From: a virus
Strand: one strand, 5' to 3'
DNA: 42,443 bases
Virus record (IMG/VR): IMGVR_UViG_3300045988_096068
Span: 1-42,443 of that record
The position numbers were made by a program, and so were the translations under genes. This document shows positions 5,327 to 28,211 of the stretch, in pieces (the first letter of the stretch is position 1; the number at the start of each line of letters is the position of its first letter). The notes below the pieces were generated by a model. That model was given only the letters and a program-made list of their open reading frames with translations. It was not told the origin of the DNA and did not search any database.

Positions 5327-5343
5327 GTGTCCACTGTGGACAC
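5327..5343. repeat. Perfect 17-bp palindrome GTGTCCACTGTGGACAC (copy A)
   Basis: Read directly. Intergenic, between convergent genes. CCCGGCGGCGGGG lies 10 nt upstream. Confidence 0.9.
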
Positions 5344-5345
5344 CT

Positions 5346-6065
5346 TCACAAGCTTTTTTCTAAGAGCTGAGACTTTTTCGCGTTATATTCTTCTTCAGTA
5401 ATCGCACCCATATCCAAGAGCCGCTTAAACTTCAAAAGTTCATCTGCAACGCTGTTGACACGTCCGTATGCAGATTGTGTCTGTGATTTCTTTTCCATGC
5501 AGGCCTTCAGCAGAGCGGTCATCCCGGCGGGATACGTCTGCGCTGACAGAGTCTTTTTGCCAAAAGGAAGCTCAAAAGAAATCGTTATATTTTCCTTGCC
5601 CTTACCTTTTCGAGTCTCTGTTTTTGCTGTAGATGCTCCCACGATCGCGCCGACTGGGCCGGCAATGGCTGCGCCGACCACGGCACGACCGATTCCGCCT
5701 TTGGTCTGCGTGACGGTGAAATCTTCCGAATCTGACTCGTAACCGGATACTTCGTCAAAGGCGTAGATCATGCGAGGGCCTTTGTCTCCGCTTCGACGAC
5801 CAAAATAAAAGAGTCCGTTTTCGTCGTCCACAGAAACATAAAGTGAATCTGCATCATAAAGAGAATCTGTTTCCTTAAACTGTTTCCGGCGTTTTTCCTG
5901 GACTGCCCAAAAATCAGCCAACTCTTTTGTCGAAAATTTGGACGCCTGAAATCCGACCTTTGAATAGAAAAAGTTCATGCAGCTGGAACAGATCAATCCG
6001 TCCGCGCTTCTTTCCCGATTCAACAGGCCCATTTTTCCACCGCAAACAGGGCATAAATTTGCCAT
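5346..6065 (-). CDS. Accessory protein with an N-terminal zinc ribbon (DUF4428-like), a glycine-zipper segment and a C-terminal SHOCT-like motif
   Basis: Motifs seen: CPVCGGKMGLL...CSSC; GGIGRAVVGAAIAGPVGAIVGA; C-terminal ELLKFKRLLDMGAITEEEYNAKKSQLL. The gene is visibly AT-richer than the flanks. Confidence 0.75.
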   Translation of the reverse strand: MANLCPVCGGKMGLLNRERSADGLICSSCMNFFYSKVGFQASKFSTKELADFWAVQEKRRKQFKETDSLYDADSLYVSVDDENGLFYFGRRSGDKGPRMIYAFDEVSGYESDSEDFTVTQTKGGIGRAVVGAAIAGPVGAIVGASTAKTETRKGKGKENITISFELPFGKKTLSAQTYPAGMTALLKACMEKKSQTQSAYGRVNSVADELLKFKRLLDMGAITEEEYNAKKSQLLEKSL

Positions 6066-6085
6066 AACTTGTCCTCTTCTCTTTG

Positions 6086-6979
6086 TTAATAAGCAATTTT
6101 TACAAATTTGCTTCCTAATTTATGCGATTCGAGGTTTTCCAAAACACGTTTTTGAACATTCGGAGATACGGCCATCAAACTTTCATAAGCATCTAAAACC
6201 TTTGTGATTGCTTCGCGGTCGTTTTGATAACTGCTCATTTGGTAATCGTATTGGGAATCCGAACCCTTAAAACGATAAACAGCTTTTTTGGCTGAAACTG
6301 ATTTTTTTAGCATCTCAATTTCCACCGGGTCGGCTATTTCGTCGCGGACTTCCCAAACGGTGGTATAATTTGATCCAATTTCTTTCAGAACTTTTTGACT
6401 GGACTCTGTATTGAAATACTTTTTGTAAACTTCTCCATCCACGGAGTAAACAATGCTATTCCAGAAAATCCAGTTTCCTCCGTAATAAGTGTATATCAGC
6501 CGAATTGGCTGAATTTCATCATTTTTTACGCAAAAATACGGAAGAATAAAAGTTGTTTGCGTTGACAAAGGCCATTTGCTCCAATAGTAAATATCGAAGT
6601 TTTCTACATCATCATGCTCTTTATAAAGACTTTTTCTTAGTTTTTCGGTTAAATATTCAACTTGCAAATCTTCCAATTCCTCGGTGGCGAGCTTCAACGT
6701 TTCATAATTGGAAACCATGGCTTTCCACTCGTCCGGAAGAGAATCATAAGCACCCTGTGCGTTTGCAATTGCGGTAGCGCTTTCCAACGTGATTGGTCCG
6801 ATCTGATTGATTTGTGCTTCCACCTGTTCCGGAGTAGTGACCTCGTTTTCCTTCTCCAACTGCGCCAGCGAGGTGTACCCGGCGGGGCTGAGTGCCATTG
6901 TAGGCAGGGCAGCACCGGCCAGAGTTGCCGCAATGCACAAACCTGCAACCATCGTTTTGCCAATTTTCACAAGTTTCAT
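6086..6979 (-). CDS. Secreted accessory protein of unknown function (297 aa, signal peptide)
   Basis: The start was chosen at ATG 6979 after GGAGAAAG. The N-terminus MKLVKIGKTMVAGLCIAATLAGAALPTMALS looks like a signal peptide. AT-rich. Confidence 0.7.
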   Translation of the reverse strand: MKLVKIGKTMVAGLCIAATLAGAALPTMALSPAGYTSLAQLEKENEVTTPEQVEAQINQIGPITLESATAIANAQGAYDSLPDEWKAMVSNYETLKLATEELEDLQVEYLTEKLRKSLYKEHDDVENFDIYYWSKWPLSTQTTFILPYFCVKNDEIQPIRLIYTYYGGNWIFWNSIVYSVDGEVYKKYFNTESSQKVLKEIGSNYTTVWEVRDEIADPVEIEMLKKSVSAKKAVYRFKGSDSQYDYQMSSYQNDREAITKVLDAYESLMAVSPNVQKRVLENLESHKLGSKFVKIAY

Positions 6980-7061
6980 GATTCTTTCTCCGTTCTCTTG
7001 ATTTTTTATCATCATGGTTGTAATATAAAACCATGAAATACAACTTAAAGGAGTGTTATGA

Positions 7062-7160
7062 ATGTCTGACAACGAATTTTTGGCCCTTTTGCGGGAACAT
7101 CCGGAACTTTGGGAACTCGTACTGCGTACCCTTCAAGGGTTTGAAAAGGCCGTTGTCTGA
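7062..7160 (+). CDS. Possible very small ORF (32 aa)
   Basis: ATG 7062 lies 8 nt after AAGGAG, and TGA is at 7158..7160. No other support. Confidence 0.25.
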   Translation: MSDNEFLALLREHPELWELVLRTLQGFEKAVV

Positions 7161-7168
7161 CATCGCGG

Positions 7169-7197
7169 TTGACCTTTTTGCTTCAAGTCCATATAAT
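7169..7197 (+). promoter_or_regulatory. Near-consensus sigma-70-type promoter TTGACC-17-TATAAT
   Basis: TTGACC at 7169..7174, an exact 17-nt spacer, TATAAT at 7192..7197, about 45 nt upstream of ATG 7242. Confidence 0.65.
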
Positions 7198-7241
7198 GAC
7201 GGTAGTGCGAATGTTTATTCACTTTCAGAAAGGAGAACTAT

Positions 7242-7577: not shown

Positions 7578-7859
7578 CAGTGTATTTGCAAACCGCAGCT
7601 CGCTTTTCCGGCGGGCCAGATATTGCAGATACAGTTTTCCGTTTTGCGAGATTTTGTATGTGCCTTTCGGGCTGATTCCATTGGAACAGTCCGGCTCATA
7701 ATCGACCAGGCCCAAATCGCATAAACTTTTAAGCCTTGTCGGCCAATCGCCGGTATTCTCTACCGTTTTTTGCGAAAGCAGGCGCAGATCTTCCAGCTCT
7801 TCGGGAGACAGCACCAGCGTCGAAAAATCCGGGATGTCCGCATGGTCCACGATCCTCAT
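7521..7859 (-). CDS. Hypothetical protein with a C-terminal membrane anchor (112 aa), co-transcribed with the XRE regulator
   Basis: The start overlaps the upstream stop (ATGA-type coupling at 7856..7859). C-terminal TM segment LSVLALAVSIVALIVTIV. Confidence 0.6.
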   Translation of the reverse strand: MRIVDHADIPDFSTLVLSPEELEDLRLLSQKTVENTGDWPTRLKSLCDLGLVDYEPDCSNGISPKGTYKISQNGKLYLQYLARRKSELRFANTLSVLALAVSIVALIVTIVR

Positions 7860-8185
7860 CCTTCTTTCTTGCTGCTCTCCAACACGGCCAGCGCGGCGGC
7901 TTTGGCTGCTGCACGTGCTTCCGGTGTTGCACTCTTGTAAGCCACTTCAATGTCGGCCCATTCTCTTTCGAGCTCGCCTTGCCCGGCGGGCTCTTTTTTT
8001 GTGCCCATCAGCTCCTCGACCGAGATGCCAAAATAATCGGCGATCTTCTTGCGGTTTTTAACTTGCGGTAAAGCGCCGTTTTTCCAACTTGTCACAGCGG
8101 AACGCTTAAAGCCCAAATCTTCAACAACAACTGTCGGTGATTTTTCGATTTTCTCGCACTGATTTACAAAATTACGCCAAAACAA
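7856..8185 (-). CDS. XRE/Cro-CI-type HTH regulator (candidate lysogeny repressor)
   Basis: HTH region DLGFKRSAVTSWKNGALPQVKNRKKIADYFGISVEELMG. The track ORF extends to 8209, but AAGGAGGTGG lies inside it, so a TTG start at 8185 (or GTG at 8194) is more likely. Confidence 0.8.
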   Translation of the reverse strand: MFWRNFVNQCEKIEKSPTVVVEDLGFKRSAVTSWKNGALPQVKNRKKIADYFGISVEELMGTKKEPAGQGELEREWADIEVAYKSATPEARAAAKAAALAVLESSKKEG

Positions 8186-10196: not shown

Positions 10197-10568
10197 ATGG
10201 AGAAAGACAAAATCATTGTTGACGGAGTGGAATATGTTCGTGCTGACAGCATCCAGAGCAACGCTCTGGCGACCGAACTTGATGGGATGCCCTACTGCAT
10301 GGTCCGCACTTACAGCGCTGGTGTATTTTCTGGGTATCTTGAGAGCCGCGAGGGCAAGGAGGCAACCCTTCGCAATGCTCGCCGAATCTGGTATTGGGAT
10401 GGCGCTGCAACTTTGTCTCAGCTGGCCACGGATGGAACCAGCAAGCCGGAAAACTGCAAGTTCCCGTGCCCGGTTGATTGTGTGATGCTGACCGAAGTGA
10501 TCGAAATCATTCCCATCACCAAAAGGGCTAAAAAGAGTATTGAGGAGGTTGCCGTATGGGAAATGTAA
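10197..10568 (+). CDS. Conserved phage protein of unknown function (123 aa; RTYSAGVF...ARRIWYWDGAATLSQLA motif)
   Basis: RBS GGAGGT. The motif resembles an uncharacterised family common in Firmicutes phages (from memory). Confidence 0.7.
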   Translation: MEKDKIIVDGVEYVRADSIQSNALATELDGMPYCMVRTYSAGVFSGYLESREGKEATLRNARRIWYWDGAATLSQLATDGTSKPENCKFPCPVDCVMLTEVIEIIPITKRAKKSIEEVAVWEM

Positions 10569-10783
10569 TTAACGTCTATGGAAACGGCTCCGGCAATGGC
10601 TCCGGCTACGGCTCCATCTACGGCAACGGCTCCGGATGCGGCTGCGACGAAGGCTACGGTTCCGGCTCCGACCGCGGCTACGGCTCCGGCAATGGCTCTG
10701 GCTACGGCTCCATCTACGGCTCCGGCAATGGCTCCGGCTTTGGCGACGGCAACGGCAACGGCTCCGGATGCGGCTGCGGCTGA
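10556..10783 (+). CDS. Low-complexity Gly/Ser/Asn/Tyr/Cys-rich protein (75 aa) with an internal duplication
   Basis: GSGNGSGYGSIYG and NGSGCGC blocks each occur twice, with DNA repeats starting at 10585 and 10681. It overlaps the upstream gene by 13 nt. The long antisense ORF here is a shadow. Confidence 0.5.
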   Translation: MGNVINVYGNGSGNGSGYGSIYGNGSGCGCDEGYGSGSDRGYGSGNGSGYGSIYGSGNGSGFGDGNGNGSGCGCG

Positions 10784-10796
10784 TTTATACAACTCC

Positions 10797-10859
10797 AATG
10801 ATGGCAGGAGGGTAAATAAAAGCCATTGCCAGTGCGAAAGCGCAAAATATTTTTAGAAA
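10797..10859 (+). repeat. Structured intergenic element, copy 2
   Basis: Aligns with 10114..10175. The first stem changes compensatorily (ATGGC/GCCAT versus GCGGC/GCCGC), and the GCGAAAGC hairpin is conserved. Confidence 0.6.
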
Positions 10860-12312: not shown

Positions 12313-12485
12313 CCAAAAAGCGTTTAATCAAGCTTTTGATGGGCGATTTTGGCTTGCCCAAGCGGGTTGCAACCCAAAAAGCTATCCTTGCAAATCAAAA
12401 TCACATTCCCTACGAAAAAGTATATTATTATTTTTTTGAGTATCGGCGGTATATAAATTTTGAGGCGTTGAGATATGGCAAATAG
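12309..12485 (+). CDS. Hypothetical small protein (58 aa)
   Basis: ATG 12309 follows AGGAGGTG and overlaps the ninB stop. AT-richer 3' half. Confidence 0.5.
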   Translation: MTKKRLIKLLMGDFGLPKRVATQKAILANQNHIPYEKVYYYFFEYRRYINFEALRYGK

Positions 12486-12786
12486 CATCATGCAGACCCG
12501 GCGGGAGTGTTATGTCTGCCGGATGAAGTACAACGTGTCCACCGTGGACATGCTGGAAGAGCACCATGTGCTCAACGGCCCGCTGCGGCCAGTGGCCGAA
12601 AAGTATGGCCTGAAGGTCTGGCTGTGTCACCGGCACCACAACGAGCCGGGATACAGTGCCCATTTTGACCACCACCTTCGACTCGACCTCAAAAAGCAGG
12701 CCCAGCAGGATTTTGAGGACCTCTATGGGCACAACCGCTGGATGGCGGAAATCGGAAAGGACTATCTGAAATGCTCAACATTGTAG
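12475..12786 (+). CDS. Zinc-binding His/Cys-rich phage protein (putative HNH-like nuclease or resolvase-associated protein)
   Basis: CYVC...EEHHVLNGPLRPVAEKYGLKVWLCHRHHN. This pattern recurs in Firmicutes phage recombination modules, but I do not know its function. Confidence 0.5.
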   Translation: MANSIMQTRRECYVCRMKYNVSTVDMLEEHHVLNGPLRPVAEKYGLKVWLCHRHHNEPGYSAHFDHHLRLDLKKQAQQDFEDLYGHNRWMAEIGKDYLKCSTL

Positions 12787-13249: not shown

Positions 13250-14140
13250 GTGAAAAACACTACTAAAAAACAGAGCTATATTATGATCCTCGACTGGATG
13301 GTCGATAAGTACAAGCTCAAGGGCAACGAGCTGCTGGCCTACGCGCTGATCTATGGATTCAGCCAGGATGGCGAGAGCGAGTACAAGGGCAGCTTCAGCT
13401 ATCTTTCCCGGTGGTTGGGCGCCGACCGTGCAACAATAATCCGGGTGCTCAAGCGGCTGGAAAGCAAAGGCCTGCTCACAAAACGGCAGGAACTTGTGGC
13501 CGGTCAGATGGTCAACCGGTACGTTGCCGAGGTCCCCGAAGAGGTCCAGAAGACGGTCGAAAGCAAGGACGATGCACCCGAAAATCCGGCGGAATCTCAC
13601 CCGCCTGACCAGTGGCAAAACGCCACTAGTCGCAAAATGCCACTAGTGGCAAAATGCGACGGGGACCAGTGGCAAAACGCCACGGGGGGTAGTGGCAAAA
13701 CGCCACCCAGTAATACTACTGGGTATACTACTGGGTATACTACTCCTTCGTGCGCGCGAGGCGCACAAGGGGGCGAACCTACCCCGAAGGATGTTTTCGC
13801 GGAGTATGCCGGAACGGACAAGCCTCTGCTGGAGGCTCTGACCCGGTTCGACGCATACCGGGCATCCCGGCGGGGCAAGGCATGGGACGCCCAGGCTGCA
13901 CGAGCTGTGTGTGACAAGCTCACCCAGCTGGCGGATGAATCAAAAACAACAAAACGCACAGAGTACATGATCGCCAGCATCATGCAGAGCATCGAGGCTG
14001 GATGGAGTGTCCTGGATCACCCGAAGAGCTGGGGCGGCGCACCGAAGCTGAGAAAGACAGTGGACCGGCCCGAACCCAGCGGGAACGATTTTTTGAAAAA
14101 CGCTGCACACCGGCGGTCACTCGCCCGGAAGTGCGGATAG
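13250..14140 (+). CDS. Replication initiator / replisome-organiser-like protein (N-terminal winged HTH) containing the origin iterons
   Basis: The N-terminal region LAYALIYGFS...SFSYLSRWLGADRATIIRVLKRLESKGLL is wHTH-like. It has an internal iteron array, as in lambda O-type initiators. The GTG start is uncertain. Confidence 0.7.
   Translation: MKNTTKKQSYIMILDWMVDKYKLKGNELLAYALIYGFSQDGESEYKGSFSYLSRWLGADRATIIRVLKRLESKGLLTKRQELVAGQMVNRYVAEVPEEVQKTVESKDDAPENPAESHPPDQWQNATSRKMPLVAKCDGDQWQNATGGSGKTPPSNTTGYTTGYTTPSCARGAQGGEPTPKDVFAEYAGTDKPLLEALTRFDAYRASRRGKAWDAQAARAVCDKLTQLADESKTTKRTEYMIASIMQSIEAGWSVLDHPKSWGGAPKLRKTVDRPEPSGNDFLKNAAHRRSLARKCG
13611..13706 (+). repeat. Five iterons AGTGGCAAAACGCCAC (candidate origin of replication)
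   Basis: Copies at 13611, 13628, 13645, 13668 and 13691, spaced 17, 17, 23 and 23 nt. Each contains the inverted GTGGC..GCCAC. Confidence 0.75.
13713..13744 (+). repeat. 2.7 tandem copies of the 12-bp unit ATACTACTGGGT next to the iterons
   Basis: Read directly. It encodes the TGYTTGYTT stretch of the initiator. Confidence 0.8.
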
Positions 14141-14162: not shown

Positions 14163-14957
14163 ATGAGAAATATGGCTAAGATCGCGATCATTAACCTCAA
14201 GGGCGGCGTCGGAAAGTCCGTCACCGCCTGCAACCTGTCCTGCATCCTGGCGGGCATCCATTCCCGGCGGGTGCTGGTCATGGATCTGGACAAGCAGGCC
14301 AACACGAGCAAATTTTTCAAGCGGTTTTCGGACACGGCAGACACGATGGGCGACGTGCTGGAACTCAGAGTCAAGCTGCCCGACGTGATCCAGCAGACCG
14401 ATTTTGACGGCGTTGACATTGCACCAAGCAACATGAGCATGCTGCTGGCCAACAAAAACGTGATGTTCGACGTCCGGCGTCCGCAGGCCGACCGGCTGAA
14501 GAACGCCCTCGAACCGCTGCGAAACGATTACGATTACTGCATTTTCGACTGTCCACCCGACATCGACATGGCCACCATCAACGCTCTGGTTGCTGCTGAT
14601 TACGTCATCATCCCGGTGGATTGCGACGAGTGGGCGCTGGATGGGCTGGCCGAGATCATGGATCAGGTGCGGGACATCCAGCACGGATACAACCACGAGC
14701 TTGCCGTGATGGGCGTGCTGGCCACCAAGTATTACCGGTGCCTGTATTCGACACAGGCCATCAATCAGATCGCCCATCTTGATATCCCGGCTTTCCGGAA
14801 CGAGGACGGCAGCGTGATGCGCATCAACAACAGCGTCCGAGTCAAGGAGGCAAAATCGGCACATGAGCCGCTGTACAAGTTCGCACCCAAGTGCAAGCCT
14901 GCCGAGCAGTACAAAAATCTGGCAGTACGTGTGATGCAGATCGTGGAGGGAAAGTGA
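14163..14957 (+). CDS. parA: ParA/Soj-type partition ATPase
   Basis: Deviant Walker A NLKGGVGKS near the N-terminus. Length 264 aa. Immediately followed by parB. Confidence 0.9.
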   Translation: MRNMAKIAIINLKGGVGKSVTACNLSCILAGIHSRRVLVMDLDKQANTSKFFKRFSDTADTMGDVLELRVKLPDVIQQTDFDGVDIAPSNMSMLLANKNVMFDVRRPQADRLKNALEPLRNDYDYCIFDCPPDIDMATINALVAADYVIIPVDCDEWALDGLAEIMDQVRDIQHGYNHELAVMGVLATKYYRCLYSTQAINQIAHLDIPAFRNEDGSVMRINNSVRVKEAKSAHEPLYKFAPKCKPAEQYKNLAVRVMQIVEGK

Positions 14958-14958: not shown

Positions 14959-16080
14959 ATGAGCACTGGATTATTGAGCGGGCTTCTGGGTGCACAGCCG
15001 TCCACCCCGGCGGGGCCTGGGATGCGGGTGGTCATGATCGACCGCAAAAACATCATTATCAACCCGGACAACCGGAAGATCTATCGCATCGGGGACGTGT
15101 CACGGCTCAAAGAGGATATCAAGACCAACGGCATCCGCCAGCCGCTGGAAGTGGTGGAGCTGGATAATGGCAATTACAAGCTGATCGGCGGAGAGCGGCG
15201 GTTGACCGCTTGCGAGGAGCTGGCCAAAGAGGGCGATACACGGTTTGAGGCTCTTCCCTGCGTCATCCTCAAGCTCAAGCATGACGATGACGAGAAGATC
15301 GCGCTCATCACGGCCAACGCTACCGCCCGCGACCTGACGGACGGTGAACGGCTGGCGCAGTATGAGACGCTCAAGGAGATTTTAACGAGGCGAAAAAGCC
15401 TCGGTGGGCTGAGCGGAAAGGTCCGTGATGAGCTGTGCAGGATCCTGGGCTTGAGCACTGGTGCAGCGGCCCGGCTAAACGCGATCTCGGAAAACTGCGG
15501 CGATGATACCAAGCGGGAGCTTCAGGCCGGGGAAATCACCCTGATGGGCGCATATCGTCGGGCACAAGAGATTATTGCGGCGCGGATGGCGCAGCAGGAA
15601 GCAGCCAAAGCCCCGAAACCAGATAAACCGGTGAACGAAAAGCCGGTCGTGTTCGACTGCAAACCAGAGTCTTCGGTAACGGTACCGCAGAATCCTGATT
15701 ATGACGAATGGAATCTTCCGCTAGAGTGCCGGTTGGCAGTAGAAGAAGCCCACAAAAAAGCCAAAGAAGCCACGGCAAGCCATGGCATGCCAGAGAAACC
15801 CGAAGAATCCCGTGGGAAGGACACACTGCGCAAGCTGGCGGAAAAAGAATTGAGCCAAAAGGCCTTATGGACCTTAGACCGCAATCTGTTTATTTATCGG
15901 CTGTATTTTTACAAGCATTCTCTCCCCGGCGGGGCGGAACTGTACCGCATGGAAGATAAGCAGAAGGATGAGCATAAACGATATGCGATCATACTGCAAG
16001 ATTACGAGTTTTTCACATCCGGCTGGGAAACTTACGAGGAAGCAGTCGAAAGTCTTGTCCGATACCTGAACCTGAAATAA
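14959..16080 (+). CDS. parB: ParB-family protein (N-terminal ParB/Srx domain)
   Basis: IRQPLEVVELDNGNYKLIGGERRLTACEEL matches the ParB box with the GERR arginine patch. The start is 2 nt after the parA stop. Confidence 0.85.
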   Translation: MSTGLLSGLLGAQPSTPAGPGMRVVMIDRKNIIINPDNRKIYRIGDVSRLKEDIKTNGIRQPLEVVELDNGNYKLIGGERRLTACEELAKEGDTRFEALPCVILKLKHDDDEKIALITANATARDLTDGERLAQYETLKEILTRRKSLGGLSGKVRDELCRILGLSTGAAARLNAISENCGDDTKRELQAGEITLMGAYRRAQEIIAARMAQQEAAKAPKPDKPVNEKPVVFDCKPESSVTVPQNPDYDEWNLPLECRLAVEEAHKKAKEATASHGMPEKPEESRGKDTLRKLAEKELSQKALWTLDRNLFIYRLYFYKHSLPGGAELYRMEDKQKDEHKRYAIILQDYEFFTSGWETYEEAVESLVRYLNLK

Positions 16081-16093: not shown

Positions 16094-16744
16094 ATGAAAG
16101 TCCTTATCGCTTGCGAGGAATCGCAGGAAGTTTGCAAAGCGTTTCGTGCAAAAAATCACGAAGCCTACTCTTGCGACATTCAGGAACCATCAGGAGGGCA
16201 TCCTGAATGGCACATTCTTGGAGATGCGCTCAAGGCTATTGAGGGGGGGCAAATCGTGACGATGGACGGCGTAGAGCATGACATCGGGAAATGGGATTTG
16301 CTCATTGCGCACCCGCCTTGCACTTATTTGACAAAAGCCGGCGGAAATAGGTTAGTGATTGACGGCAAAATTCAAGCAGAGCGATATAAAAAAGGATGCG
16401 ATGCACGAGATTTTTTCATGAAGTTCTGGAATGCCCCGGTGGATAAAATAGCAATAGAAAATCCGATACCAATGAGAATCTTTGGATTGCCAGAATACAG
16501 CCAGATCATTCAGCCGTATATGTTCGGAGAGGAATACATGAAAACGACGTGCTTATGGCTGAAAAACATTCCGGGACTGTTCGCCACAGATATCGTTATA
16601 CCTACGTCGAAATGGGTCTCGTCGTCAGATCATCGTGCGGTGAAACGAAAAGACGCATGGTCTCAAAGTGGCCATAGAACAGCGAAACAGCGAAGCAAAA
16701 CATTTTCCGGCATTGCAAAAGCCATGTCTGAGCAGTGGGGATAG
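16094..16744 (+). CDS. C5-cytosine methyltransferase-like protein (short form)
   Basis: HPPCTYLTKAG (PC catalytic motif) and IENP (ENV-like motif). No canonical FxGxG motif I, so activity is uncertain. Confidence 0.55.
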   Translation: MKVLIACEESQEVCKAFRAKNHEAYSCDIQEPSGGHPEWHILGDALKAIEGGQIVTMDGVEHDIGKWDLLIAHPPCTYLTKAGGNRLVIDGKIQAERYKKGCDARDFFMKFWNAPVDKIAIENPIPMRIFGLPEYSQIIQPYMFGEEYMKTTCLWLKNIPGLFATDIVIPTSKWVSSSDHRAVKRKDAWSQSGHRTAKQRSKTFSGIAKAMSEQWG

Positions 16745-16776: not shown

Positions 16777-17229
16777 ATGGAGCCGCTGACGCCACGAGAA
16801 TTTCGGAAATTGTATGCTATCCCTTACGACATCGAAAAACGTCAGCGGCGCATTGAACAGCTCGAAGCAATACAGGCTGACGGCCCGCAGAGCGCCTCCG
16901 ATGTGGTCAAGTCTTCCAGCGGTGAGGGGAACGCCTGCATCCTGAGTCACGCGACCGTGACCGGAACGGACATTTCCTTCACCCGGCGGGAAGATGAGAT
17001 CAAGCGGCTCAAGCGGACCAACGTCCAGCAGCGGAAAAAGTACATGTATGGTCTGAGCCTTATTGAGAGCTGCGATGACTGCGAGCTGCGGGCGCTGCTC
17101 ACGGCAGTCTGCACGGAAGGCAAAAAGCCGCAGATCGTGGCAGTCGAGCTTATGGAGAAGGGAATGGATGTTGGTCCTGAAGCCATTCGAAGCCGAGTGG
17201 ATCGGTGGATTAAGAAGAATGTGAGGTAA
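16777..17229 (+). CDS. Putative sigma-region-4-like phage transcription regulator (DUF1492-like)
   Basis: The C-terminal IESCDDCELRALLTAVCTEGKKPQIVAVELM...EAIRSRVDRWIKK resembles late-activator families. Assigned from memory. Confidence 0.45.
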   Translation: MEPLTPREFRKLYAIPYDIEKRQRRIEQLEAIQADGPQSASDVVKSSSGEGNACILSHATVTGTDISFTRREDEIKRLKRTNVQQRKKYMYGLSLIESCDDCELRALLTAVCTEGKKPQIVAVELMEKGMDVGPEAIRSRVDRWIKKNVR

Positions 17230-17234: not shown

Positions 17235-17474
17235 ATGAAAAATTGTCCTGTGTGTGATTTTATTAGACAATCTAAAGACGCTTTGGAAGAACTTGGCGGA
17301 TATGTGTCCTTCGGGTGCTCTACAATAGCGTGGTATCATAGAGATGATAATCTAATATATTCCATGAACAGTAACGGAACAACTCAACTTTTATATTGCC
17401 CTAATTGCGGACTCCCGATAAATGAAATCCAGAGAAATCCAGAGCATCTAAAGGAGACCAATAATGACAGATGA
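17235..17474 (+). CDS. Small zinc-ribbon protein (79 aa)
   Basis: CPVC...CPNC pairs. AT-rich segment. Confidence 0.6.
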   Translation: MKNCPVCDFIRQSKDALEELGGYVSFGCSTIAWYHRDDNLIYSMNSNGTTQLLYCPNCGLPINEIQRNPEHLKETNNDR

Positions 17475-18126
17475 AGGCTTCCGACGGCTTGCAAGTGATT
17501 TGAAGTGCGGCCTGATTACTGTGGACCAAATTCGAGCGGCAGGATTAGATCGAGAAGTAAAGGATTATCTGGATTCTTCCCAATACGCCTATATTGAGAC
17601 TATGAGAAAAGATGACCTTGAAAGAAGAAAAAATTCTGACACGATAAACCCACTGCACTACGAGATGTGCAAAGATTCTTCTGATCCATGCAAAGGCTGC
17701 TCAAATCTTACGTCGTTATATGCGGATGATAAAGTTGTTGAGCAATTCTGTGAAGACCGCACCTGCCCCATCTGGCTCAAAGACCATCCAAAAGATAAAA
17801 TCAAACAGGTCAAAACGCTCACAGTCGAAGAGTGGAGGCGGAAAGTAGCAAAAGAGGAAGAGCCTGCAAACCCGTGTGCGGGGTGCAAGTTCCGGAAGTA
17901 CCACGATTGGTTAGAACCAACATGGAAAGGACCCTCTGCCCATTACTACGACTGCGAAAATCCATCCTGCCCGAATTGGAACCGGCTGTGGTGGCGAAAC
18001 AACGATGATGGCTCACCTCTTCTGGATCAGGAACCTATCAAGCTGAAGAGAAAGATTCAACACGCGGCCTATGCGCTGGTAACGTGGATGAACAATGCTA
18101 TCAGCACAATTTCAGAAGAAATCTAA
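17464..18126 (+). CDS. Hypothetical Cys-rich protein (220 aa)
   Basis: Several CxxC / CPxW motifs (PCKGCSNL, RTCPIW, PCAGCKF, PSCPNW). RBS AAGGAGA. Confidence 0.65.
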   Translation: MTDEGFRRLASDLKCGLITVDQIRAAGLDREVKDYLDSSQYAYIETMRKDDLERRKNSDTINPLHYEMCKDSSDPCKGCSNLTSLYADDKVVEQFCEDRTCPIWLKDHPKDKIKQVKTLTVEEWRRKVAKEEEPANPCAGCKFRKYHDWLEPTWKGPSAHYYDCENPSCPNWNRLWWRNNDDGSPLLDQEPIKLKRKIQHAAYALVTWMNNAISTISEEI

Positions 18127-18220
18127 AAAATATTTCAAAGTATTCAAGTAAAACAGGCAAATTCAGTTCAAATAAGTCATACTTTCAAAAGCGCGTTTCT
18201 CGCAGCATCGTAATTCCCGT

Positions 18221-18302
18221 GCACGAAATGCACGGATTGCAGCAAAACGCACGAAATGACCGAAATGACCGAAATGCACGATTTGACCGGATTGCGCATT
18301 TT
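18221..18302 (+). repeat. Nine tandem ~9-bp units (consensus GMMCGRAWT) directly upstream of a promoter
   Basis: GCACGAAAT GCACGGATT GCAGCAAAAC GCACGAAAT GACCGAAAT GACCGAAAT GCACGATTT GACCGGATT GCGCATTTT. Confidence 0.85.
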
Positions 18303-18307
18303 TAATG

Positions 18308-18316
18308 TGCTATAAT
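18308..18316 (+). promoter_or_regulatory. Extended -10 promoter element TGCTATAAT
   Basis: TATAAT at 18311..18316 is preceded by TGC. There is no good -35; the repeat array occupies that position. Confidence 0.5.
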
Positions 18317-18484
18317 CAAAATGCGGTTATTGGGTGAAAGCCCAAGAAACCGCTCATTGTGGATTCGGACTTCCCGGCGGGAATCATAGAGCGGTCGAAC
18401 CTTACCGCACTCAATGGGACCAGCGCCGTCCGCTTCAAAACCCAGCGGCGCATGACGAACAAGATATCACATCCACCCGGCGGG
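18317..18484 (+). other. Hairpin-rich leader or candidate ncRNA
   Basis: Stems GCGGTT/AACCGC enclosing TGGG/CCCA; TTCCC/GGGAA; GCGGT/ACCGC; GCGCCG/CGGCGC. It contains two CCCGGCGGG copies. No convincing ORF. Confidence 0.3.
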
Positions 18485-18501
18485 GTGTCCACAGTGGACA
18501 C
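18485..18501. repeat. Perfect 17-bp palindrome GTGTCCACAGTGGACAC (copy B)
   Basis: Read directly. It abuts CCCGGCGGG (18476..18484) and lies 30 nt upstream of ATG 18531. Confidence 0.9.
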
Positions 18502-18530: not shown

Positions 18531-18767
18531 ATGGGGAACGTTATGGAGAACCTGATCGAAACCATTTACAAAACGATTGACGTGATGAAAACATTGGGCT
18601 GCATCCTTTCTGACCTCTTCCGAACGAAGTCTATGTTCTGGATGCGGAAAAACAAGAAAATCGTAATGATGCGGCGGCATTCCCGCTGCCGCTTTGTAAA
18701 GAAGACCTGTCATAAGATGCGGCATCGTGAGCCGCGGGCAGAGATCGGAGGAACCGGCTGTATCTAA
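18531..18767 (+). CDS. Hypothetical small basic protein (78 aa)
   Basis: Strong RBS GAAAGGAG. The C-terminal half is Arg/Lys/His/Cys-rich. Confidence 0.6.
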   Translation: MGNVMENLIETIYKTIDVMKTLGCILSDLFRTKSMFWMRKNKKIVMMRRHSRCRFVKKTCHKMRHREPRAEIGGTGCI

Positions 18768-18876: not shown

Positions 18877-18877
18877 T

Positions 18878-18950
18878 GTCGCTTTAGCTCAACCGGAAGA
18901 GCTGACGGCTCATAACCGTTTGGTTGCAGGTTCAAATCCTGCAAGCGGCA
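18878..18950 (+). tRNA. tRNA with anticodon CAT (Met or lysidine-Ile), no encoded CCA
   Basis: The cloverleaf was folded by hand. Acceptor GTCGCTT/AAGCGGC (one G-U pair), D arm GCTC/GAGC, anticodon loop CTCATAA (CAT at 18911..18913), T arm GCAGG-TTCAAAT-CCTGC. Confidence 0.85.
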
Positions 18951-18958
18951 TTCTATAA

Positions 18959-19034
18959 ATTCCCGTAGCTCAATTGGTAGAGCATCGGTCTCCAAAACCG
19001 AAGGCTGAAGGCTCGGTCCCTTCCGGGAATGCCA
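18959..19034 (+). tRNA. tRNA-Trp (anticodon CCA) with encoded CCA end and an atypical T-loop
   Basis: Acceptor ATTCCCG/CGGGAAT, D arm GCTC/GAGC, anticodon loop CTCCAAA (CCA at 18992..18994). The T arm is GAAGG-CTCGGTC-CCTTC, where the loop lacks the usual TTCRA. Confidence 0.8.
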
Positions 19035-19247: not shown

Positions 19248-20573
19248 ATGAAATATGGCGTTCCGTATCAAGGGAGCAAGAACAAAATTGCACAGTGGAT
19301 TATCTCCAATCTCCCCTCTGGGGACACACTGATCGACCTGTTTGCTGGTGGCTGTGCCGTTACCCATGCCGCGATACTGTCTGGAAAATGGAACCGCATT
19401 GTCGCGAATGACATCGGTGATGCGCCGCAGTTGTTCATGGACGCTATCCACGGAAAGTATGCCAACGAAAAGCGTTGGATTAGCCGTGAGGAGTTTCACC
19501 GAATAAAAGATTCCGACACTTACGTTTCGCTTTGTTGGAGTTTCGGAAACAATCGAAGCAGCTATCTCTATGCCAGGGAAATCGAGCCGTGGAAGAAAGC
19601 TCTTCATTTTGCAAGAGTGCATAATGATTATAGTCTATTTCGTGAGTTCGGAATAAAAACAACCGGAAGCAAAAAAGATATTTTAGAAAACGAATCCGTA
19701 TATAAAGAAAAATACATAAAATGGTGGCTTTCTCAGCAACCATATAAAGCGGATAAACTCGAAGAGCTTATTCGCCAAACGGAGTCGGACATAAAAAAAT
19801 CGGAAAAGGTTCTTAGAGATTATCTTTTAGCCGGATTAAAACAATCTGGAATTTCGCAATCTGAAGTTCAAAAAAGACTCGGAACGCAAATGGCTGGGCA
19901 TTATTTTGGCCGCTCTCAATGGAGCTTTCCGACAAAGGAAATGTATCAAAAAATGCAGACATTTATGCCATATCCGACCGAGTATGAAGAACTTACAGAA
20001 CTATACAACCTGAAAAAAAGTCTGGAAAGTCTGCAAAGTCTGCAAAGTCTGCAAAGTCTGCAAAGTCTGGAAAGTCTGGAAAGTCTGGAAAGTCTGGAAA
20101 GTCTGGAAAGTCTGGAAAGGCTGGAAAGGCTGCAAAGGCTGCAAAGTCTGGAAAGGCTGCAAAGTCTGGAAAGGCTGCAAAGTCTGGAAAGGCTGGAAAG
20201 GCTGGAAAGGCTGCAAAGTCTGCAAAGGCTGGAAATACTGCAAAAAGATTATGCGAAAGTTCAAATCCCGGATGACGCAATTGTGTACGCAGACCCACCA
20301 TATAAGGGAACGGACAGCACCGGCTATAAATGCGAGTTCGACCATATGGCTTTTGAACAATGGCTGGAAAAGGTTCCGTTTATGGTGATCGTCAGCGAAT
20401 ACGAAGCGCCTGCTGGATGCGTAGAAATTGCAAGCATAAAGAAGCAATCCACTATGGGCGCTGGTAACAAAGGCGGGTGCAAAACCGAGAAACTATTTGT
20501 TCAGGAAAGGTTCTCGAACAAATATAAAAGCCTAATGCTGCTGGAACATGGGCAACAACTGACAATGCTATGA
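19248..20573 (+). CDS. N6-adenine DNA methyltransferase (Dam-like, D12 class) with an internal 75-residue tandem repeat
   Basis: YQGSKNKIA and DLFAGGCAV (AdoMet motif I) are N-terminal, and VYADPPYKGT (catalytic DPPY) is C-terminal. RBS GAAAGGAGGG. Confidence 0.85.
   Translation: MKYGVPYQGSKNKIAQWIISNLPSGDTLIDLFAGGCAVTHAAILSGKWNRIVANDIGDAPQLFMDAIHGKYANEKRWISREEFHRIKDSDTYVSLCWSFGNNRSSYLYAREIEPWKKALHFARVHNDYSLFREFGIKTTGSKKDILENESVYKEKYIKWWLSQQPYKADKLEELIRQTESDIKKSEKVLRDYLLAGLKQSGISQSEVQKRLGTQMAGHYFGRSQWSFPTKEMYQKMQTFMPYPTEYEELTELYNLKKSLESLQSLQSLQSLQSLESLESLESLESLESLERLERLQRLQSLERLQSLERLQSLERLERLERLQSLQRLEILQKDYAKVQIPDDAIVYADPPYKGTDSTGYKCEFDHMAFEQWLEKVPFMVIVSEYEAPAGCVEIASIKKQSTMGAGNKGGCKTEKLFVQERFSNKYKSLMLLEHGQQLTML
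20019..20243 (+). repeat. 25 tandem 9-bp units AG(T/G)CTG(C/G)AA, in frame, encoding (S/R)L(E/Q) x25
   Basis: Counted unit by unit: SLE, SLQx4, SLEx6, RLE, RLQx2, SLE, RLQ, SLE, RLQ, SLE, RLEx2, RLQ, SLQ, RLE, ILQ. Confidence 0.95.
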
Positions 20574-20926: not shown

Positions 20927-21113
20927 CCGGCTGTGTGAATCTTTCTCCTATGCCCGGTGTCCACCGTGTACACCCCCCTCCCAAAAAAACGGGGTGAGCG
21001 GGTCGGGGCCTTACTCGTGGTGTCCCTCGACTTTCCAGCTTTCCTCTCGCGCACACGTGCGCGCGGGAATCGTTGTGATGTTGCACAAAATTTGACGAAA
21101 GGATGATTCCATA
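20927..21113 (+). other. Candidate cos / terminase recognition region
   Basis: Intergenic segment between HNH and terS with G/C runs (CACCCCCCTCCC, GGGGTGAGCGGGTCGGGGCC), the inverted repeat CGCGCAC-AC-GTGCGCG and a degenerate copy of the 17-bp palindrome. Confidence 0.3.
20957..20973. repeat. Degenerate (16/17) copy of the palindrome: GTGTCCACCGTGTACAC (copy D)
   Basis: Read directly. Preceded by CCCGG. Confidence 0.7.
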
Positions 21114-25087: not shown

Positions 25088-25118
25088 AAAGGCGTGTCCA
25101 AACTGGACACGCCTTTTT
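25088..25118. terminator. Hairpin terminator GGCGTGTCCA-AAC-TGGACACGCC, related to the 17-bp palindrome (copy E)
   Basis: 10-bp stem flanked by AAA and TTTTT. Confidence 0.65.
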
Positions 25119-25143: not shown

Positions 25144-26631
25144 ATGAATCTGAAAGACATGTACCAGAAGAATCAGAAACTGTCTGATCTGCGCCAGCGG
25201 CTGGCCGCTGCCATCAAAGACAACAAGCCCGACGAACTGTCTGACGTCTTTTCGGAGATGTGCCAGACCATCGGCGACATCAATGCGGAGGAGTACGAAG
25301 CCCAGCTGAACGGTCTGAGGCAGCAGCTCGACAACTCTGCTCTGTATGCGCGCGGCATCCGGCAGCTGACCACGGAAGAGAAGGAATACTACCAGAAGAT
25401 CAGCGACGCCATGCGCAGCGAGAACCCGAAGCAGGCCCTCGAAAACGTGAGTGTCGTTTTCCCGCAGACCATCATCTCCCGCGTCATGGAAGACCTGACC
25501 GAGAGCCATCCTCTGCTGAGCAAGATCCAGTTCACCCCGACCGGCGGCGCCATCCGGATGATGCTGAACACCGACGGTCGCCACAAGGCCGCATGGGGTA
25601 AGCTGTGCGCAAAGATTATCGAGGAGCTGACCTCCGGCTTCAAGGAAGTTGACGTCGGCCTGTACAAGCTCTCTGCGTTCATCCCGGTCTGCAAGGCTCA
25701 GCTGGACCTCGGCCCCGAATGGCTGGACCGCTATATCCGCGCCATCCTGGCCGAAGCACTCGCCAACGGCCTGGAAGACGGCATCGTGATGGGCGACGGC
25801 AACGACAAGCCCATCGGCATGATCCGCGATGTGAGCGAGAGTGCTTCCGTTGTCGGCGGCGCATACCCCGAAAAAGCCAAGATCAAGGTCTCGGATTTCG
25901 AGCCCACCACCATGGGTAAGCTGGTCGCTCTGCTGGCCGTCACCCCGAACGGCAAGGACCGCAACCCGGATGACCTCATTTTGCTGGTCAACCCGCAGGA
26001 TTACTACGAAAAGGTCATGCCCGCCACCACGATCCGCACCCCGGACGGCACCTATCGCAACAACGTCCTGCCCTACCCTGCCACCATCATCCCGGTTTCT
26101 GCTCTGCCGCGCGGTCAGGCCGTGTTCGGCGTGGGCCGGCTGTACTTTGCAGCCGTCGGCATGAACAAGGGCGGTCGGCTGGAGTATGACGACTCCTATC
26201 GTTTCCTGGAGGACGAGCGCGTCTACCTTATCAAGCTGTATGCGAACGGCTTCCCGGTGGACAACAATGCTTTCCTGAACCTCGACATTTCCGGCCTGCG
26301 CCCGCTGCATTACAAGGTCGAGACCGTCACCTCTCCTACCCCGTCCGCTGACGCCAACCTGGCCTCCCTGAAGCTGGGCAACCTGACCCTGACCCCGGCC
26401 TTCAGCGCGACCACTGCCAGCTACACTGCAACAACCGATACGGCCTCCAATGTCATCACTGCCACCCCCGCAAACGCCGGTGCGACCGTACAGGTCAAGG
26501 TCGGCAGCAAGATCATCGAGAACGGCAAGTCTGCCACCTGGGCCGAAGGCTCCAACACGGTGACCATCAACGTGACGGCGGAAGACGGCACGACCACCAA
26601 GGCTTACACCGTCACCGTCACTAAGTCCTGA
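25144..26631 (+). CDS. Major capsid protein (HK97 fold) with a C-terminal cadherin-like/Ig-like beta-sandwich domain
   Basis: 495 aa from ATG 25144 after AAAGGAGA. The head-module position supports the call. The C-terminal about 95 aa (ANLASLKLGNLTLTPAFSATTASYTATT...TVTINVTAEDGTTTKAYTVTVTKS) match the cadherin-like beta-sandwich pattern. Confidence 0.85.
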   Translation: MNLKDMYQKNQKLSDLRQRLAAAIKDNKPDELSDVFSEMCQTIGDINAEEYEAQLNGLRQQLDNSALYARGIRQLTTEEKEYYQKISDAMRSENPKQALENVSVVFPQTIISRVMEDLTESHPLLSKIQFTPTGGAIRMMLNTDGRHKAAWGKLCAKIIEELTSGFKEVDVGLYKLSAFIPVCKAQLDLGPEWLDRYIRAILAEALANGLEDGIVMGDGNDKPIGMIRDVSESASVVGGAYPEKAKIKVSDFEPTTMGKLVALLAVTPNGKDRNPDDLILLVNPQDYYEKVMPATTIRTPDGTYRNNVLPYPATIIPVSALPRGQAVFGVGRLYFAAVGMNKGGRLEYDDSYRFLEDERVYLIKLYANGFPVDNNAFLNLDISGLRPLHYKVETVTSPTPSADANLASLKLGNLTLTPAFSATTASYTATTDTASNVITATPANAGATVQVKVGSKIIENGKSATWAEGSNTVTINVTAEDGTTTKAYTVTVTKS

Positions 26632-26635
26632 CCTT

Positions 26636-26965
26636 ATGACGACCGTATGGGATGGCATCCGGGACGTGCTGCTCCCAGATATCAAGACCTATCTCGACAT
26701 CACATGGGATGACGACGCAGTGGACACGAAGGTCTGGAACCTTACCGTGGGCGGTATGTCCTATCTGGACGGCAAGATCGGCGAGCCACAGGACTACACC
26801 GCGCCCGGTCTGCACCGGGACCTGCTCATGGATTACGTCCGCTACGCCCGCGACGGCGCGGCGGATATCTTTGAGAACAATTACCGTCATCTCATTCTAG
26901 CAGCGCAAAACGAAAGGCGGGTGAGCGCTTATGCCGCGCAAAATGCCGACCAGACCAACGAATGA
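26636..26965 (+). CDS. Head-tail connector protein (gp6-like)
   Basis: 109 aa, immediately after the capsid gene. YLDITWDDD...YVRYARDG is typical of this family (from memory). Confidence 0.7.
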   Translation: MTTVWDGIRDVLLPDIKTYLDITWDDDAVDTKVWNLTVGGMSYLDGKIGEPQDYTAPGLHRDLLMDYVRYARDGAADIFENNYRHLILAAQNERRVSAYAAQNADQTNE

Positions 26966-27329
26966 CATCTCGCAGAACTTCAACGCAGGCGTTTTGGCCG
27001 TTTTTTCGACCGAGGACGTCGCCGATGTCGGCCACCAACCCAAAATCAAGCTGAAAAGGAAGCTCTCGGCCTGCTACGAAGAGCAGCGGCTCGGCATCAA
27101 CCGGCTGTATCTCAGCCGCCAGAACCTTGCGGAGATCGTCCGCGTGGTGCGGGTGCCGCGCGCACCGGTGCAGATCAGCAGCCAGGACGTGGCCCGGACC
27201 GAAGACGGCCAGTATTATCGCATCGACACGGTTCAGGTGGTGGAAAACTGCCACCCGCCCTCGATGGATATCAGCCTGCGGGCCGTCGAGGAAGATTTCG
27301 ACGACCGCCTGAAGGAGGATGGAAAATGA
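26931..27329 (+). CDS. Head closure / head-tail adaptor protein
   Basis: Supported by position and size. RIDTVQVVEN... resembles SPP1 gp16-type head closure proteins. The start is uncertain (26931 or 26943). Confidence 0.65.
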   Translation: MPRKMPTRPTNDISQNFNAGVLAVFSTEDVADVGHQPKIKLKRKLSACYEEQRLGINRLYLSRQNLAEIVRVVRVPRAPVQISSQDVARTEDGQYYRIDTVQVVENCHPPSMDISLRAVEEDFDDRLKEDGK

Positions 27330-27679
27330 CGTGGAGCGAGTGCATCATCGCAGCCCATACCGCCGTCACCGACCAGGTGAGCCATGGCGGGCGGATGAAA
27401 TCCAAGCGGTACTTCGTCTGGCAGGAGAGCAAGCCCCGCGATCTGATCGCGGACGGCATCCACTGCGAGCGCATCCATCGCGGCTCGACCAGCCTGTACA
27501 CGCCCCTTGAGTTTGACCCGTGGGCGGACCAATTTGAGCAGTCTCTTAACAGCCGCAGCAACATTGCATGGAGCTGCGAAGGCAAATGGCCGGATGAAGG
27601 AAATACCCGCATCTGGCATTATGAGTGGAAGTGGGAGGTGGTGGAAAATGGCGAAGATCACAGCACCGAAAGCATCTGA
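27326..27679 (+). CDS. Neck / tail-completion module protein (hypothetical)
   Basis: 117-aa ORF with RBS GGAGGA, lying between the head closure protein and the HK97 gp10-like protein. Confidence 0.55.
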   Translation: MTWSECIIAAHTAVTDQVSHGGRMKSKRYFVWQESKPRDLIADGIHCERIHRGSTSLYTPLEFDPWADQFEQSLNSRSNIAWSCEGKWPDEGNTRIWHYEWKWEVVENGEDHSTESI

Positions 27680-28169
27680 GTACATCCGCAATCTGAAGAC
27701 GCTGGAGGACCACACAGACGCACTGTGCAAAATGGCCGTCTATGCGGGCGCGAAGGTCGCGGCGGATGCAATCAATGCGGCGATTGATAACATCACAGTC
27801 CACAATCTGCCCCCCGGAAAAACCTATTACTACCTGAAGGAAGAGGACCAAAAAGCGGGCGTAATGCTGGACGGCGTGACAAAGGCTCAGGCCAATGGGC
27901 TCAAAAAGGGCCTTGGTATCGCCGTCATGGAGTACAAAGGCAAGGCATGGAATACTATAGTCGGCTTTGATGGGTACAACGACGTCAAAACCGAGACCTA
28001 CCCCAACGGCCAGCCGAATGCTCTGATCGCCCGCAGTGTCGAGAGCGGCAGCACGATCCGCAACGCAACACCTTTTATTGCCCCCGCCGTTGAAAGCATC
28101 ATGAAAGATGCCGAAAACGCAATGCAGATCACGGTCGAGAATAAGATCGCGGCCTTGATGAAAGAATGA
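27648..28169 (+). CDS. HK97 gp10-family neck/tail protein
   Basis: IARSVESGSTIRNATPFIAPA matches the gp10-family signature (from memory). The start was chosen at ATG 27648. Confidence 0.65.
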   Translation: MAKITAPKASEYIRNLKTLEDHTDALCKMAVYAGAKVAADAINAAIDNITVHNLPPGKTYYYLKEEDQKAGVMLDGVTKAQANGLKKGLGIAVMEYKGKAWNTIVGFDGYNDVKTETYPNGQPNALIARSVESGSTIRNATPFIAPAVESIMKDAENAMQITVENKIAALMKE

Positions 28170-28176
28170 TGCCCGG

Positions 28177-28211
28177 AAGGTGTCCACAGTGGACACCTTC
28201 TTCTTTTTTTA
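28177..28211. terminator. 23-bp perfect palindrome AAGGTGTCCACAGTGGACACCTT (copy C) plus T-run
   Basis: Palindrome at 28177..28199 followed by CTTCTTTTTTTA. It lies between the neck genes and the major tail gene. Confidence 0.65.

Follow-up and report, generated by a model that had tools for sequence, protein, structure and literature searches.

The window analysed here is the whole of IMG/VR virus record IMGVR_UViG_3300045988_096068 (positions 1 to 42,443; 42,443 nucleotides), and the subject of this study is a 17-base inverted repeat, GTGTCCA-NNN-TGGACAC, which is dispersed over this phage genome together with a parA-parB gene pair. A pattern search of the window found perfect GTGTCCACWGTGGACAC copies at 5327-5343, 18485-18501 and 28180-28196, at the coordinates given in a preliminary description of this DNA, and two-mismatch matches at 12535-12551, 20957-20973 and 25094-25110. 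These six matches represent five or six copies. The 5327 copy (GTGTCCACTGTGGACAC) follows directly after the GC-rich terminator of a cro-like gene (5086-5286, rightward), a plus-strand hairpin at 5291-5319 that contains CCCGGCGGCGGGG and is followed by TGATTTT; a leftward gene (5346-6065) ends 3 nt from the palindrome. The degenerate copy at 12535 (GTGTCCACCGTGGACAT) lies in an open reading frame (ORF) at 12475-12786, where it is read as the codons NVSTVDM. The 18485 copy stands at the end of a structured leader of about 135 nt and 30 nt before a gene starting at 18531, and the decayed copy at 20957 (GTGTCCACCGTGTACAC) stands between an HNH gene and terS. The two remaining sites are terminator-type hairpins on the plus strand, both correctly described before: GGCGTGTCCA-AAC-TGGACACGCC followed by TTTTTG (25091-25113), a 13-bp hairpin with another loop located 31 nt before the major capsid gene, and the 23-bp perfect palindrome AAGGTGTCCACAGTGGACACCTT followed by a T-run (28177-28199), 28 nt before the major tail gene.

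The six matches compare with 0.00 in 100 dinucleotide-preserving shuffles, and in an unbiased scan for palindromes with 6-nt arms and 0-7-nt spacers this motif family alone exceeded the shuffle maximum for recurrence. It is the sole recurrent palindrome family in the window, which bears out the earlier judgement that the identical 17-mers are not due to chance. Other details had to be revised. All copies had been called intergenic, and the sixth one, overlooked at the time, falls inside the ORF at 12475-12786. The 16/17 agreement reported for the 20957 copy is obtained with the centre base ignored, and against the W pattern the copy scores 15/17. A CCCGG had been placed 0-14 nt to the left of each copy; at 5327 it ends 17 nt before the palindrome and is part of the separate terminator hairpin at 5291-5319, and at the tail-gene site this flank is not kept in relatives, which have for example cccaaagaag or cctgcgcagg. 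The related proposal of an asymmetric composite element applies at 18485, where a conserved CCCGGCGG abuts the palindrome, and fails at the other sites. Literature searches found no paper with the exact palindrome sequence and nothing relevant on Faecalibacterium and ParB.

Two adjacent genes on the plus strand, parA (14163-14957) and parB (14959-16080), encode a ParA and a ParB with a GERR box, as had been recognized before. ParA (264 aa) is a deviant Walker-A ATPase whose NLKGGVGKS agrees with the KGGxGK[ST] signature; its N-terminus (...IINLKGGVGKSVT...) has no helix-turn-helix (HTH), and it matches AAA_31, CbiA and MipZ (E 6e-46). ParB (373 aa) matches PF02195 (ParB_N) at residues 36-117. 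Its LIGGERRLTA aligns with LIAGERRLRA of Helicobacter pylori Spo0J (4umk) and corresponds to a predicted CTP-binding GERRxRA box, and the HTH that follows the N-domain (GKVRDELCRILGLSTGAAARLNAI) aligns over about 60 residues with the same Spo0J and with Noc. The alignment of ParB to H. pylori Spo0J residues 32-181 runs through residues 125-178, which hold the HTH. An AlphaFold model built from a shallow alignment was confident only for ParB residues of about 110-220 and 290-373, with the helices at 128-216 at a pLDDT (predicted local distance difference test) of about 80-86; the N-domain (mean pLDDT 59) was too poor to justify a fold search. The window contained no canonical parS within 3 mismatches and no other candidate parS. 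Upstream of parA the nearest palindrome of the window is 1.6 kb away, and downstream of parB it is 2.4 kb away; relatives have a copy inside parA (L008/L010) or inside parB (group 2, described below).

No repeat cluster had been seen next to parAB in the preliminary description. Five iterons of about 20 nt do occur at 13607-13706, 457 bp upstream of parA and inside a gene for an HTH_36 initiator, with spacings of 17, 17, 23 and 23. Relatives with other initiator alleles have the same iteron spacing and a different iteron sequence, with ParB and the palindrome constant. Because they follow the initiator allele and not ParB or the palindrome, the iterons were assigned to an origin and ruled out as the real centromere, and the region is probably the replication origin.

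A ParA/ParB pair located before the late genes, as in the window, was also seen in the cultured Clostridium phage Saumur (L500), whose ParB is 31% identical to that of the window. Saumur carries a 3-copy palindrome of its own, TATACTT-N4-AAGTATA, at 2415, 2831 and 35422; an Arc-like repressor gene has a copy on either side, and the remaining copy is found about 470 bp upstream of parA.

Relatives of the phage were numerous. The TerL protein of the window is also encoded on 42.4-kb human-gut metagenome contigs, and an 843,691-bp contig of Faecalibacterium prausnitzii (GCA_002550035.1) encodes a ParB 75% identical to that of the window, with the neighbouring gene order kept. With a near-identical relative located inside this large F. 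prausnitzii contig, F. prausnitzii is the host and phages of this type integrate. Megablast of 20 kb against the INPHARED phages gave no match, and against the PLSDB plasmids it matched tRNA-like stretches only.

Looking for the 17-mer in related phages had been proposed as a check, and IMG/VR yielded at least 120 stretches with the exact 17-mer, next to 127 TerL relatives. At orthologous sites in these relatives the arms GTGTCCA/TGGACAC are invariant and the central triplet is free (CAG, CTG, CCG, CGG, AAC, GTT, GAG, TTG). The same positions recur, namely after the cro-like gene, at the leader end before the late genes, and before terS, the capsid gene and the major tail gene. The 18485 copy is the most widely conserved one, many relatives with no more than 35-45% identity in g9 have the 5327-type site at the corresponding junction, and at the 20957 position close relatives have a copy with perfect arms. 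In the window and in relatives, copies end at a constant 26-36 nt ahead of start codons. Copies within coding sequence are read in three frames, always within variable protein segments: as VSTVDT in the linker of GH25 lysins, as RVQSGH in a variable surface loop of ParA in L008/L010, and as VSNSDA at codons 18-23 of parB in those group-2 loci that have parB. The palindrome of the g29 site is kept while the amino acids change, and at the 12535 site palindrome-like variants stay and the encoded amino acids differ (e.g. GTGTCCACTGTGGGCAC in the F. prausnitzii prophage). Constant arms, a free triplet, three reading frames and changing amino acids together indicate selection on the DNA or RNA sequence and not on protein.

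The motif also exists in lineage-specific versions. Phages of group 1, with a ParB at least 47% identical to that of the window, have GTGTCCA-NNN-TGGACAC sites, and the HTH of their ParB (...GKVRDE.CRILGLSTGAAARLN.I.) is conserved across the group, where the palindrome is constant. The ParB of group 2 is 25-30% identical to the window's and has a GHRR box and a different recognition helix (HTH ...ACKISKSKLARL....); the sites of this group all read GTGYCC-RAWTY-GGRCAC, with GTGCCCGAATCGGGCAC as the group-2 variant. One of its members, GenBank MT835558.1, carries the motif five times and has no second palindrome family that recurs. As the sites within a genome agree in their version of the motif and lineages differ in theirs, a trans-acting, phage-encoded reader is called for.

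At part of the sites selection also acts on the hairpin. The 28177-28199 and 25091-25113 copies form strong hairpins of 12-13 bp (-19.3 and -22.7 kcal/mol, z -4.1 and -6.9), and each GC-rich stem is directly followed by a T-run on the transcribed strand, in line with the terminator role proposed for them earlier. The features of an intrinsic terminator were absent at 18485 and 12535, which are bare 7-bp hairpins, the former without a T-run, and at 20957, which no longer folds; for 18485 and 20957 this had been anticipated. In relatives the tail site has flanks that covary (aagg/cctt, gcagg/cctgc, ggag/ctcc) with a T-run behind them. Among 130 unique viral contexts, 32% showed at least 3 extra complementary flanking pairs (1.6% expected at random) and 30 had 2 or more extra pairs together with a T-run of 4 or longer, while 63% showed 0 or 1 extra pair and most had no T-run. 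Since one third of the contexts have covarying stem extensions, mostly with T-runs, hairpin structure is under selection at those copies. The asymmetry between wobble and A.C combinations (39 vs 30), tried as a separate test of RNA structure, was dominated by inherited orthologous sites and discarded as uninformative.

The dispersed set of sites was restricted to lineages with both ParA and ParB. In TerL relatives with at least 7 kb of upstream sequence, sites were present in 36/36 ParB-positive and 0/2 ParB-negative loci, and 13/14 loci fetched through ParB had 2-5 sites, counts that are phylogenetically non-independent and come from about three or four lineages. Site densities of 1.26 and 1.16 per 10 kb were reached in the two lineages that have ParA and ParB, which are deeply diverged. 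Group 3, which lacks ParAB as checked with Pfam, had 0 sites in 68 kb, and the phages of 56-59 kb (here the 57-kb group) had 1 site in 2.9 Mb of sampled loci; the parts examined in the latter (42.7 of 57.2 kb of one contig) contained no ParB_N homologue. The non-structural proteins common to the window and both lineages are ParA, ParB and HNH only, and HNH is also found in the palindrome-free group 3.

These observations would be explained best if the palindromes were a dispersed parS-like set for the Spo0J/Noc-type ParB of the phage, with the copies at 25094 and 28180 serving also as intrinsic terminators. We would give this reading a probability of roughly 0.45. From the sequences we infer ParB binding, a CTP switch and a function in partition or silencing. 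A ParB dimer would contact the two GTGTCCA half-sites through its HTH and leave the 3-bp centre untouched, then close as a CTP-dependent clamp and spread from five or six entry points. Together with ParA it could position phage genomes that are excised, replicating or not yet integrated, and its occupancy at cistron boundaries may damp or time late-gene transcription. At 25094 and 28180 the covarying flanks and the T-run would extend the palindrome into a terminator, and these copies would act on RNA too.

Several points weigh against a ParB-site relationship, and mainly because of the exceptions among them our confidence stays below one half. The covarying stems and T-runs show selection on hairpin structure at one third of the contexts, the nearest sites in the window are not adjacent to parAB, a relative integrated in the host chromosome calls the need for partition into question, and the lineages behind the co-occurrence counts are few and not independent. 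An orphan ParB with the same HTH exists without a site: it is encoded next to a methylase, without ParA, in a locus (L333) whose 21 kb contain no site. Such a case is in keeping with sites that persist only where the whole system is present. The 57-kb phages, where no ParB was found in the 42.7 of 57.2 kb examined of one contig, retain the exact 17-mer in the lysin linker. Its left and right flanks occur there in differing combinations, so that it marks a mosaic junction. Phages of group M have one copy, between a tRNA and a small ORF, and no ParAB in the 9.7 kb upstream; the flanks of this copy are nearly identical to those in ParB-positive phages, and it may be a recent transfer. In two Faecalibacterium prophages a copy lies just downstream of the integrase gene. 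The exceptions are compatible with maintenance of the sites only where both ParA and ParB are present and with carriage by module exchange elsewhere.

The hairpin evidence also invites an explanation at the RNA level only, in which the sites are terminators or 5'-proximal stabilising or processing hairpins before highly expressed late cistrons, and the sequence has spread by mosaic recombination with no specific protein involved. The two T-run hairpins, the extra flanking pairs and their covariation, the constant distance to start codons, and the free loop over a conserved stem, which a structure would be expected to show, all speak for such a model. Structure alone, however, need not fix the arm sequence at non-orthologous sites or convert every site in a genome to the variant of its lineage. 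The majority of contexts have 0-1 extra pair and most have no T-run; in the window, 18485 is without T-run and 20957 unfolded. Moreover, coding copies occur in three frames, and the motif is not in use in ParAB-less phages with the same host and many common modules. We regard hairpins alone as an unlikely explanation. Quite unlikely in our view is an operator or roadblock for some other phage protein that travels with parAB, be it an unannotated late regulator or an immunity repressor of the stoperator type. Sites at cistron boundaries before late genes and after the cro-like gene would suit such a protein, within group 1 the motif is accompanied by several early proteins without annotation (16777-17229, 17464-18126), and the palindrome of Saumur flanks a repressor gene besides lying upstream of parA. 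Group 2, however, keeps the motif family with no non-structural overlap with the window beyond ParA, ParB and the HNH protein that group 3 has without palindromes. The motif is also constant across many immunity-region variants, whereas immunity specificities normally diversify fast. Operators of one of the HTH repressors had been suggested specifically, but XRE operators found no support: between g8 and g9 and between g14 and g15 there are inverted repeats of other kinds, and GTGTCC half-sites are absent. The suggestion of late-activator sites likewise found no support, because 28-31 nt, with nothing but a ribosome binding site in them, separate the ends of the copies from the start codons, which leaves no room for a promoter.

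Mosaicism itself could be the function, if the 17-mer at module boundaries promoted exchange among Faecalibacterium phages and was carried along by successful recombinants. The lysin 17-mer does separate flanks that are found in different combinations, many sites are at gene or module boundaries, and the single group-M copy has flanks nearly identical to those in ParB-positive phages. Against this, 17 bp are short for homologous exchange, and neither the lineage-specific variants at all sites of a genome nor the near-absence of the motif outside the lysis region in the very abundant 57-kb phages is explained; we consider a recombination joint improbable. That the phage acquired a generic host element of the repetitive extragenic palindromic (REP) type or a host-factor site, which the preliminary description had named as a possible ground for dismissal, appears very improbable. 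A scan of the genomes of about 185,000 species for the exact 17-mer gave at least 120 matches (L203-L322), and among the matches listed Pseudonocardiaceae (Amycolatopsis, Lentzea, Saccharothrix and others) dominate. In that family the 17-mer is strongly over-represented, often as the apex of long perfect hairpins or in a conserved gene, and further matches listed lie at convergent gene ends in a Tabrizicola metagenome-assembled genome and, in four copies, near a MarR gene in a Luteolibacter scaffold. The motif can thus be frequent in unrelated genomes and at gene-end hairpins. Faecalibacterium and Clostridiales, however, account for about 5% of the matches listed, and these adjoin integrases or lie in prophage or phage contigs, so that nothing among them points to a host REP present in high copy; the motif is also missing from co-resident phages that draw on the same gene pool. 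With 65,536 possible 8-nt arms set against about 185,000 species, coincidence with hairpin families of other phyla is expected, and we treated the cross-phylum matches as independent families. A binding protein shared across phyla was discounted, as the genes around these matches are ordinary or code for unrelated regulators, and only a limited number of 8-nt arms exist.

Some further candidates were set aside. A DnaA-box pair (TTGTCCACA type 9-mer including the final A) was ruled out because the centre base is free (A, T, C, G) at orthologous sites. A methyltransferase target (the window encodes methyltransferases at 16094-16744 and 19248-20573) was judged unlikely, since a 17-bp palindrome is far longer than such sites and group-M and 57-kb phages have homologues of these enzymes without dispersed sites. 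A role with HNH or as a cos-site was rejected because palindrome-free group 3 has the HNH protein too, and the product of the small ORF after the 18485 palindrome was rejected as binding factor because group 2 lacks it and yet retains the motif.

One match of the genome scan was of separate interest. The contig of Lachnospiraceae hRUG856 (L210, 1800-5380) contains an element resembling integrative and conjugative elements with four arrays of 40-bp tandem repeats, the repeat unit being GTGTCC(ATTAT/GTTTC)GGACAC preceded by ggctccgggggt. The arrays adjoin putative ribbon-helix-helix (RHH, MobC-like) and ArdC-like genes, judged by eye from ORF translations, and look like a centromere or iteron array.

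If the sites are indeed bound by ParB, the system would resemble several known ones in part. KorB has a regulatory role in transcription. The KorB/IncC-OB system of the IncP plasmids RK2/RP4 likewise has a pair of ParA and ParB homologues and one short palindrome scattered over the replicon, and its combination of partition and transcriptional control in one protein would be analogous to the role suggested here for the window's ParB. The two differ in that OB is a 13-bp TTTAGCSGCTAAA at or near promoters, whereas the 17-bp window site is found inside genes or in the gap that separates a stop codon or terminator from the following ribosome binding site; RK2/RP4 is a plasmid and the window an integrating Firmicute siphophage, in which no KorA-like partner was identified. 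For RK2, a 13-bp palindromic core in OB3 and related sites dispersed through the plasmid have been described (PMC3597684). The chromosomal ParB(Spo0J)-parS system (TGTTNCACGTGAAACA) shares with the window a ParB_N domain with a GERR box and an HTH, and a palindrome with an inner CAC/GTG in multiple dispersed copies, some of them in coding sequence. Unlike chromosomal parS, the window site is phage-borne, 17 bp long and has an unspecified 3-bp centre and the half-site GTGTCCA.

The preliminary description had pointed to the plasmid-prophage N15. Its SopAB system is reportedly accompanied by dispersed centromere sites, IR1-IR4, on the linear plasmid-prophage, and these sites are reported to influence late gene expression. 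N15 and the window share a partition ATPase, a centromere-binding protein or its candidate, and several scattered inverted repeats on a phage genome. N15, however, is extrachromosomal, a linear plasmid that encodes a protelomerase and a SopA/SopB pair of type Ia, whereas the window is a circular assembly and has a tyrosine integrase (3133-4278, minus strand), a near-identical relative inside the 843,691-bp F. prausnitzii contig and a Spo0J/Noc-type ParB. The plasmid-prophage frame found no support, with no search aimed at a protelomerase made. The stoperators of mycobacteriophages L5 and Bxb1 are asymmetric 13-mers in one orientation relative to transcription, bound by the immunity repressor, and are thought to stop read-through in short gaps. 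Many copies of one short site in short intergenic gaps of a temperate phage are common to both cases, but the window site is a symmetric palindrome and constant across different immunity regions. Families of intrinsic terminator or REP hairpins resemble the window in its two hairpin-plus-T-run copies and in the covarying stems of a third of the contexts. They differ in that the apical 14 bases of our motif are identical at non-orthologous sites and across phages, most copies are without stem extension or T-run, some are coding, and no high-copy host family was seen among the matches listed.

The leader RNA (18322-18455, plus strand), at whose end the 18485 palindrome lies, is conserved and structured, and is located downstream of a TGnTATAAT promoter-like site at 18306-18317, which tandem 9-10-nt repeats precede (region 18205-18455). 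It consists of CCCGGCGGGAAGCAUAGC, a covarying hairpin, GCUCAAUGG and a 7-bp hairpin, in this order. The conserved hairpin loop CCGCU(U/C)CAAAA resembles the anticodon loop of tRNA-Trp or an opal suppressor, and RNAalifold on 18 leader sequences found three pairs with double-sided changes. No Rfam family matched the leader. With a sequence model, a single leader per genome was detected in phages of group 1 and in the F. prausnitzii prophage, against none in groups 2 and 3 or the 57-kb phages. It may be a new phage leader or antitermination RNA. The first gene 3' of the leader, a small ORF (18531-18767), has a variable N-terminus and a conserved tail, ...REPRAEIGG(R/T)GC..., which is found in 29/43 group-1 loci and in 32/120 of the palindrome matches listed. 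This tail may be conserved at the nucleotide rather than the protein level.

The first and last 119 nt of the window (1-119 and 42325-42443) are identical, which indicates a circular assembly of about 42.3 kb. Besides the integrase, the minus strand carries an XRE repressor-like gene (4265-4870), paired with a divergent 66-aa gene, and a second XRE gene (7856-8185). A rightward early operon leads from SSB to the HTH_36 initiator gene that holds the iterons, and parB is followed by a DNA methyltransferase (16094-16744). Downstream of the small ORF lie tRNA-Met and tRNA-Trp (18877-19034) and a Dam-like methylase (19248-20573), then, further rightward, HNH, TerS, TerL, portal, protease, capsid and tail genes, and a GH25 lysin (37392-38078).

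Various repeats were noticed along the way. The first 102 nt of the lysin gene (37391-37492) are repeated 3.8 kb downstream (41187-41288, 90% identity). About 30 tandem copies of a 9-nt unit (19972-20289) encode a 3-aa repeat inside the Dam-like methylase, and 12/18-nt tandem repeats (ACGGCTCCGGCA...) at 10572-10811, in and around a small ORF (10556-10783), encode a repeat rich in Gly, Ser and Tyr. Across Faecalibacterium phages that otherwise differ greatly, genes g1-g6 (121-2917; DUF7841 in one of them) share 85-98% identity, an indication that the stretch between lysis genes and integrase holds a moron or accessory module of recent spread. The 56-59-kb group is very abundant, with 249 and 586 IMG/VR relatives for two marker genes (L089 5200-10500, loci L337-L496). 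It has lysis, moron and repressor modules in common with the window and, in place of an integrase, Rep3, a different ParA and BRO-N/NikA-like RHH proteins; this group looks like a phage-plasmid.

A more far-reaching version of the ParB reading, which we offer as speculation and think rather unlikely to hold as a whole, is a global gate similar to KorB: CTP-loaded ParB clamps at terminator-fused parS in front of late cistrons, at their 5' ends, would time or silence late transcription together with the leader, which might be a cis-acting antiterminator, and the 17-mers would in addition serve as crossover points, promoting the exchange of modules between F. prausnitzii phages.

F. prausnitzii is among the most abundant commensals of the human gut, and its prophages are poorly understood. 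If the sites are parS-like, a large family of F. prausnitzii temperate phages would have a complete ParABS system with the centromere split into five or six genome-wide copies, partly embedded in coding sequence and in two cases fused to terminators, and this in phages that integrate. Segregation of excised genomes, a carrier state, and silencing or timing of late genes are candidate roles for a CTP-switch ParB in an integrating phage, and the defined 17-bp site with its two natural specificity variants would offer biochemistry a system to work with.

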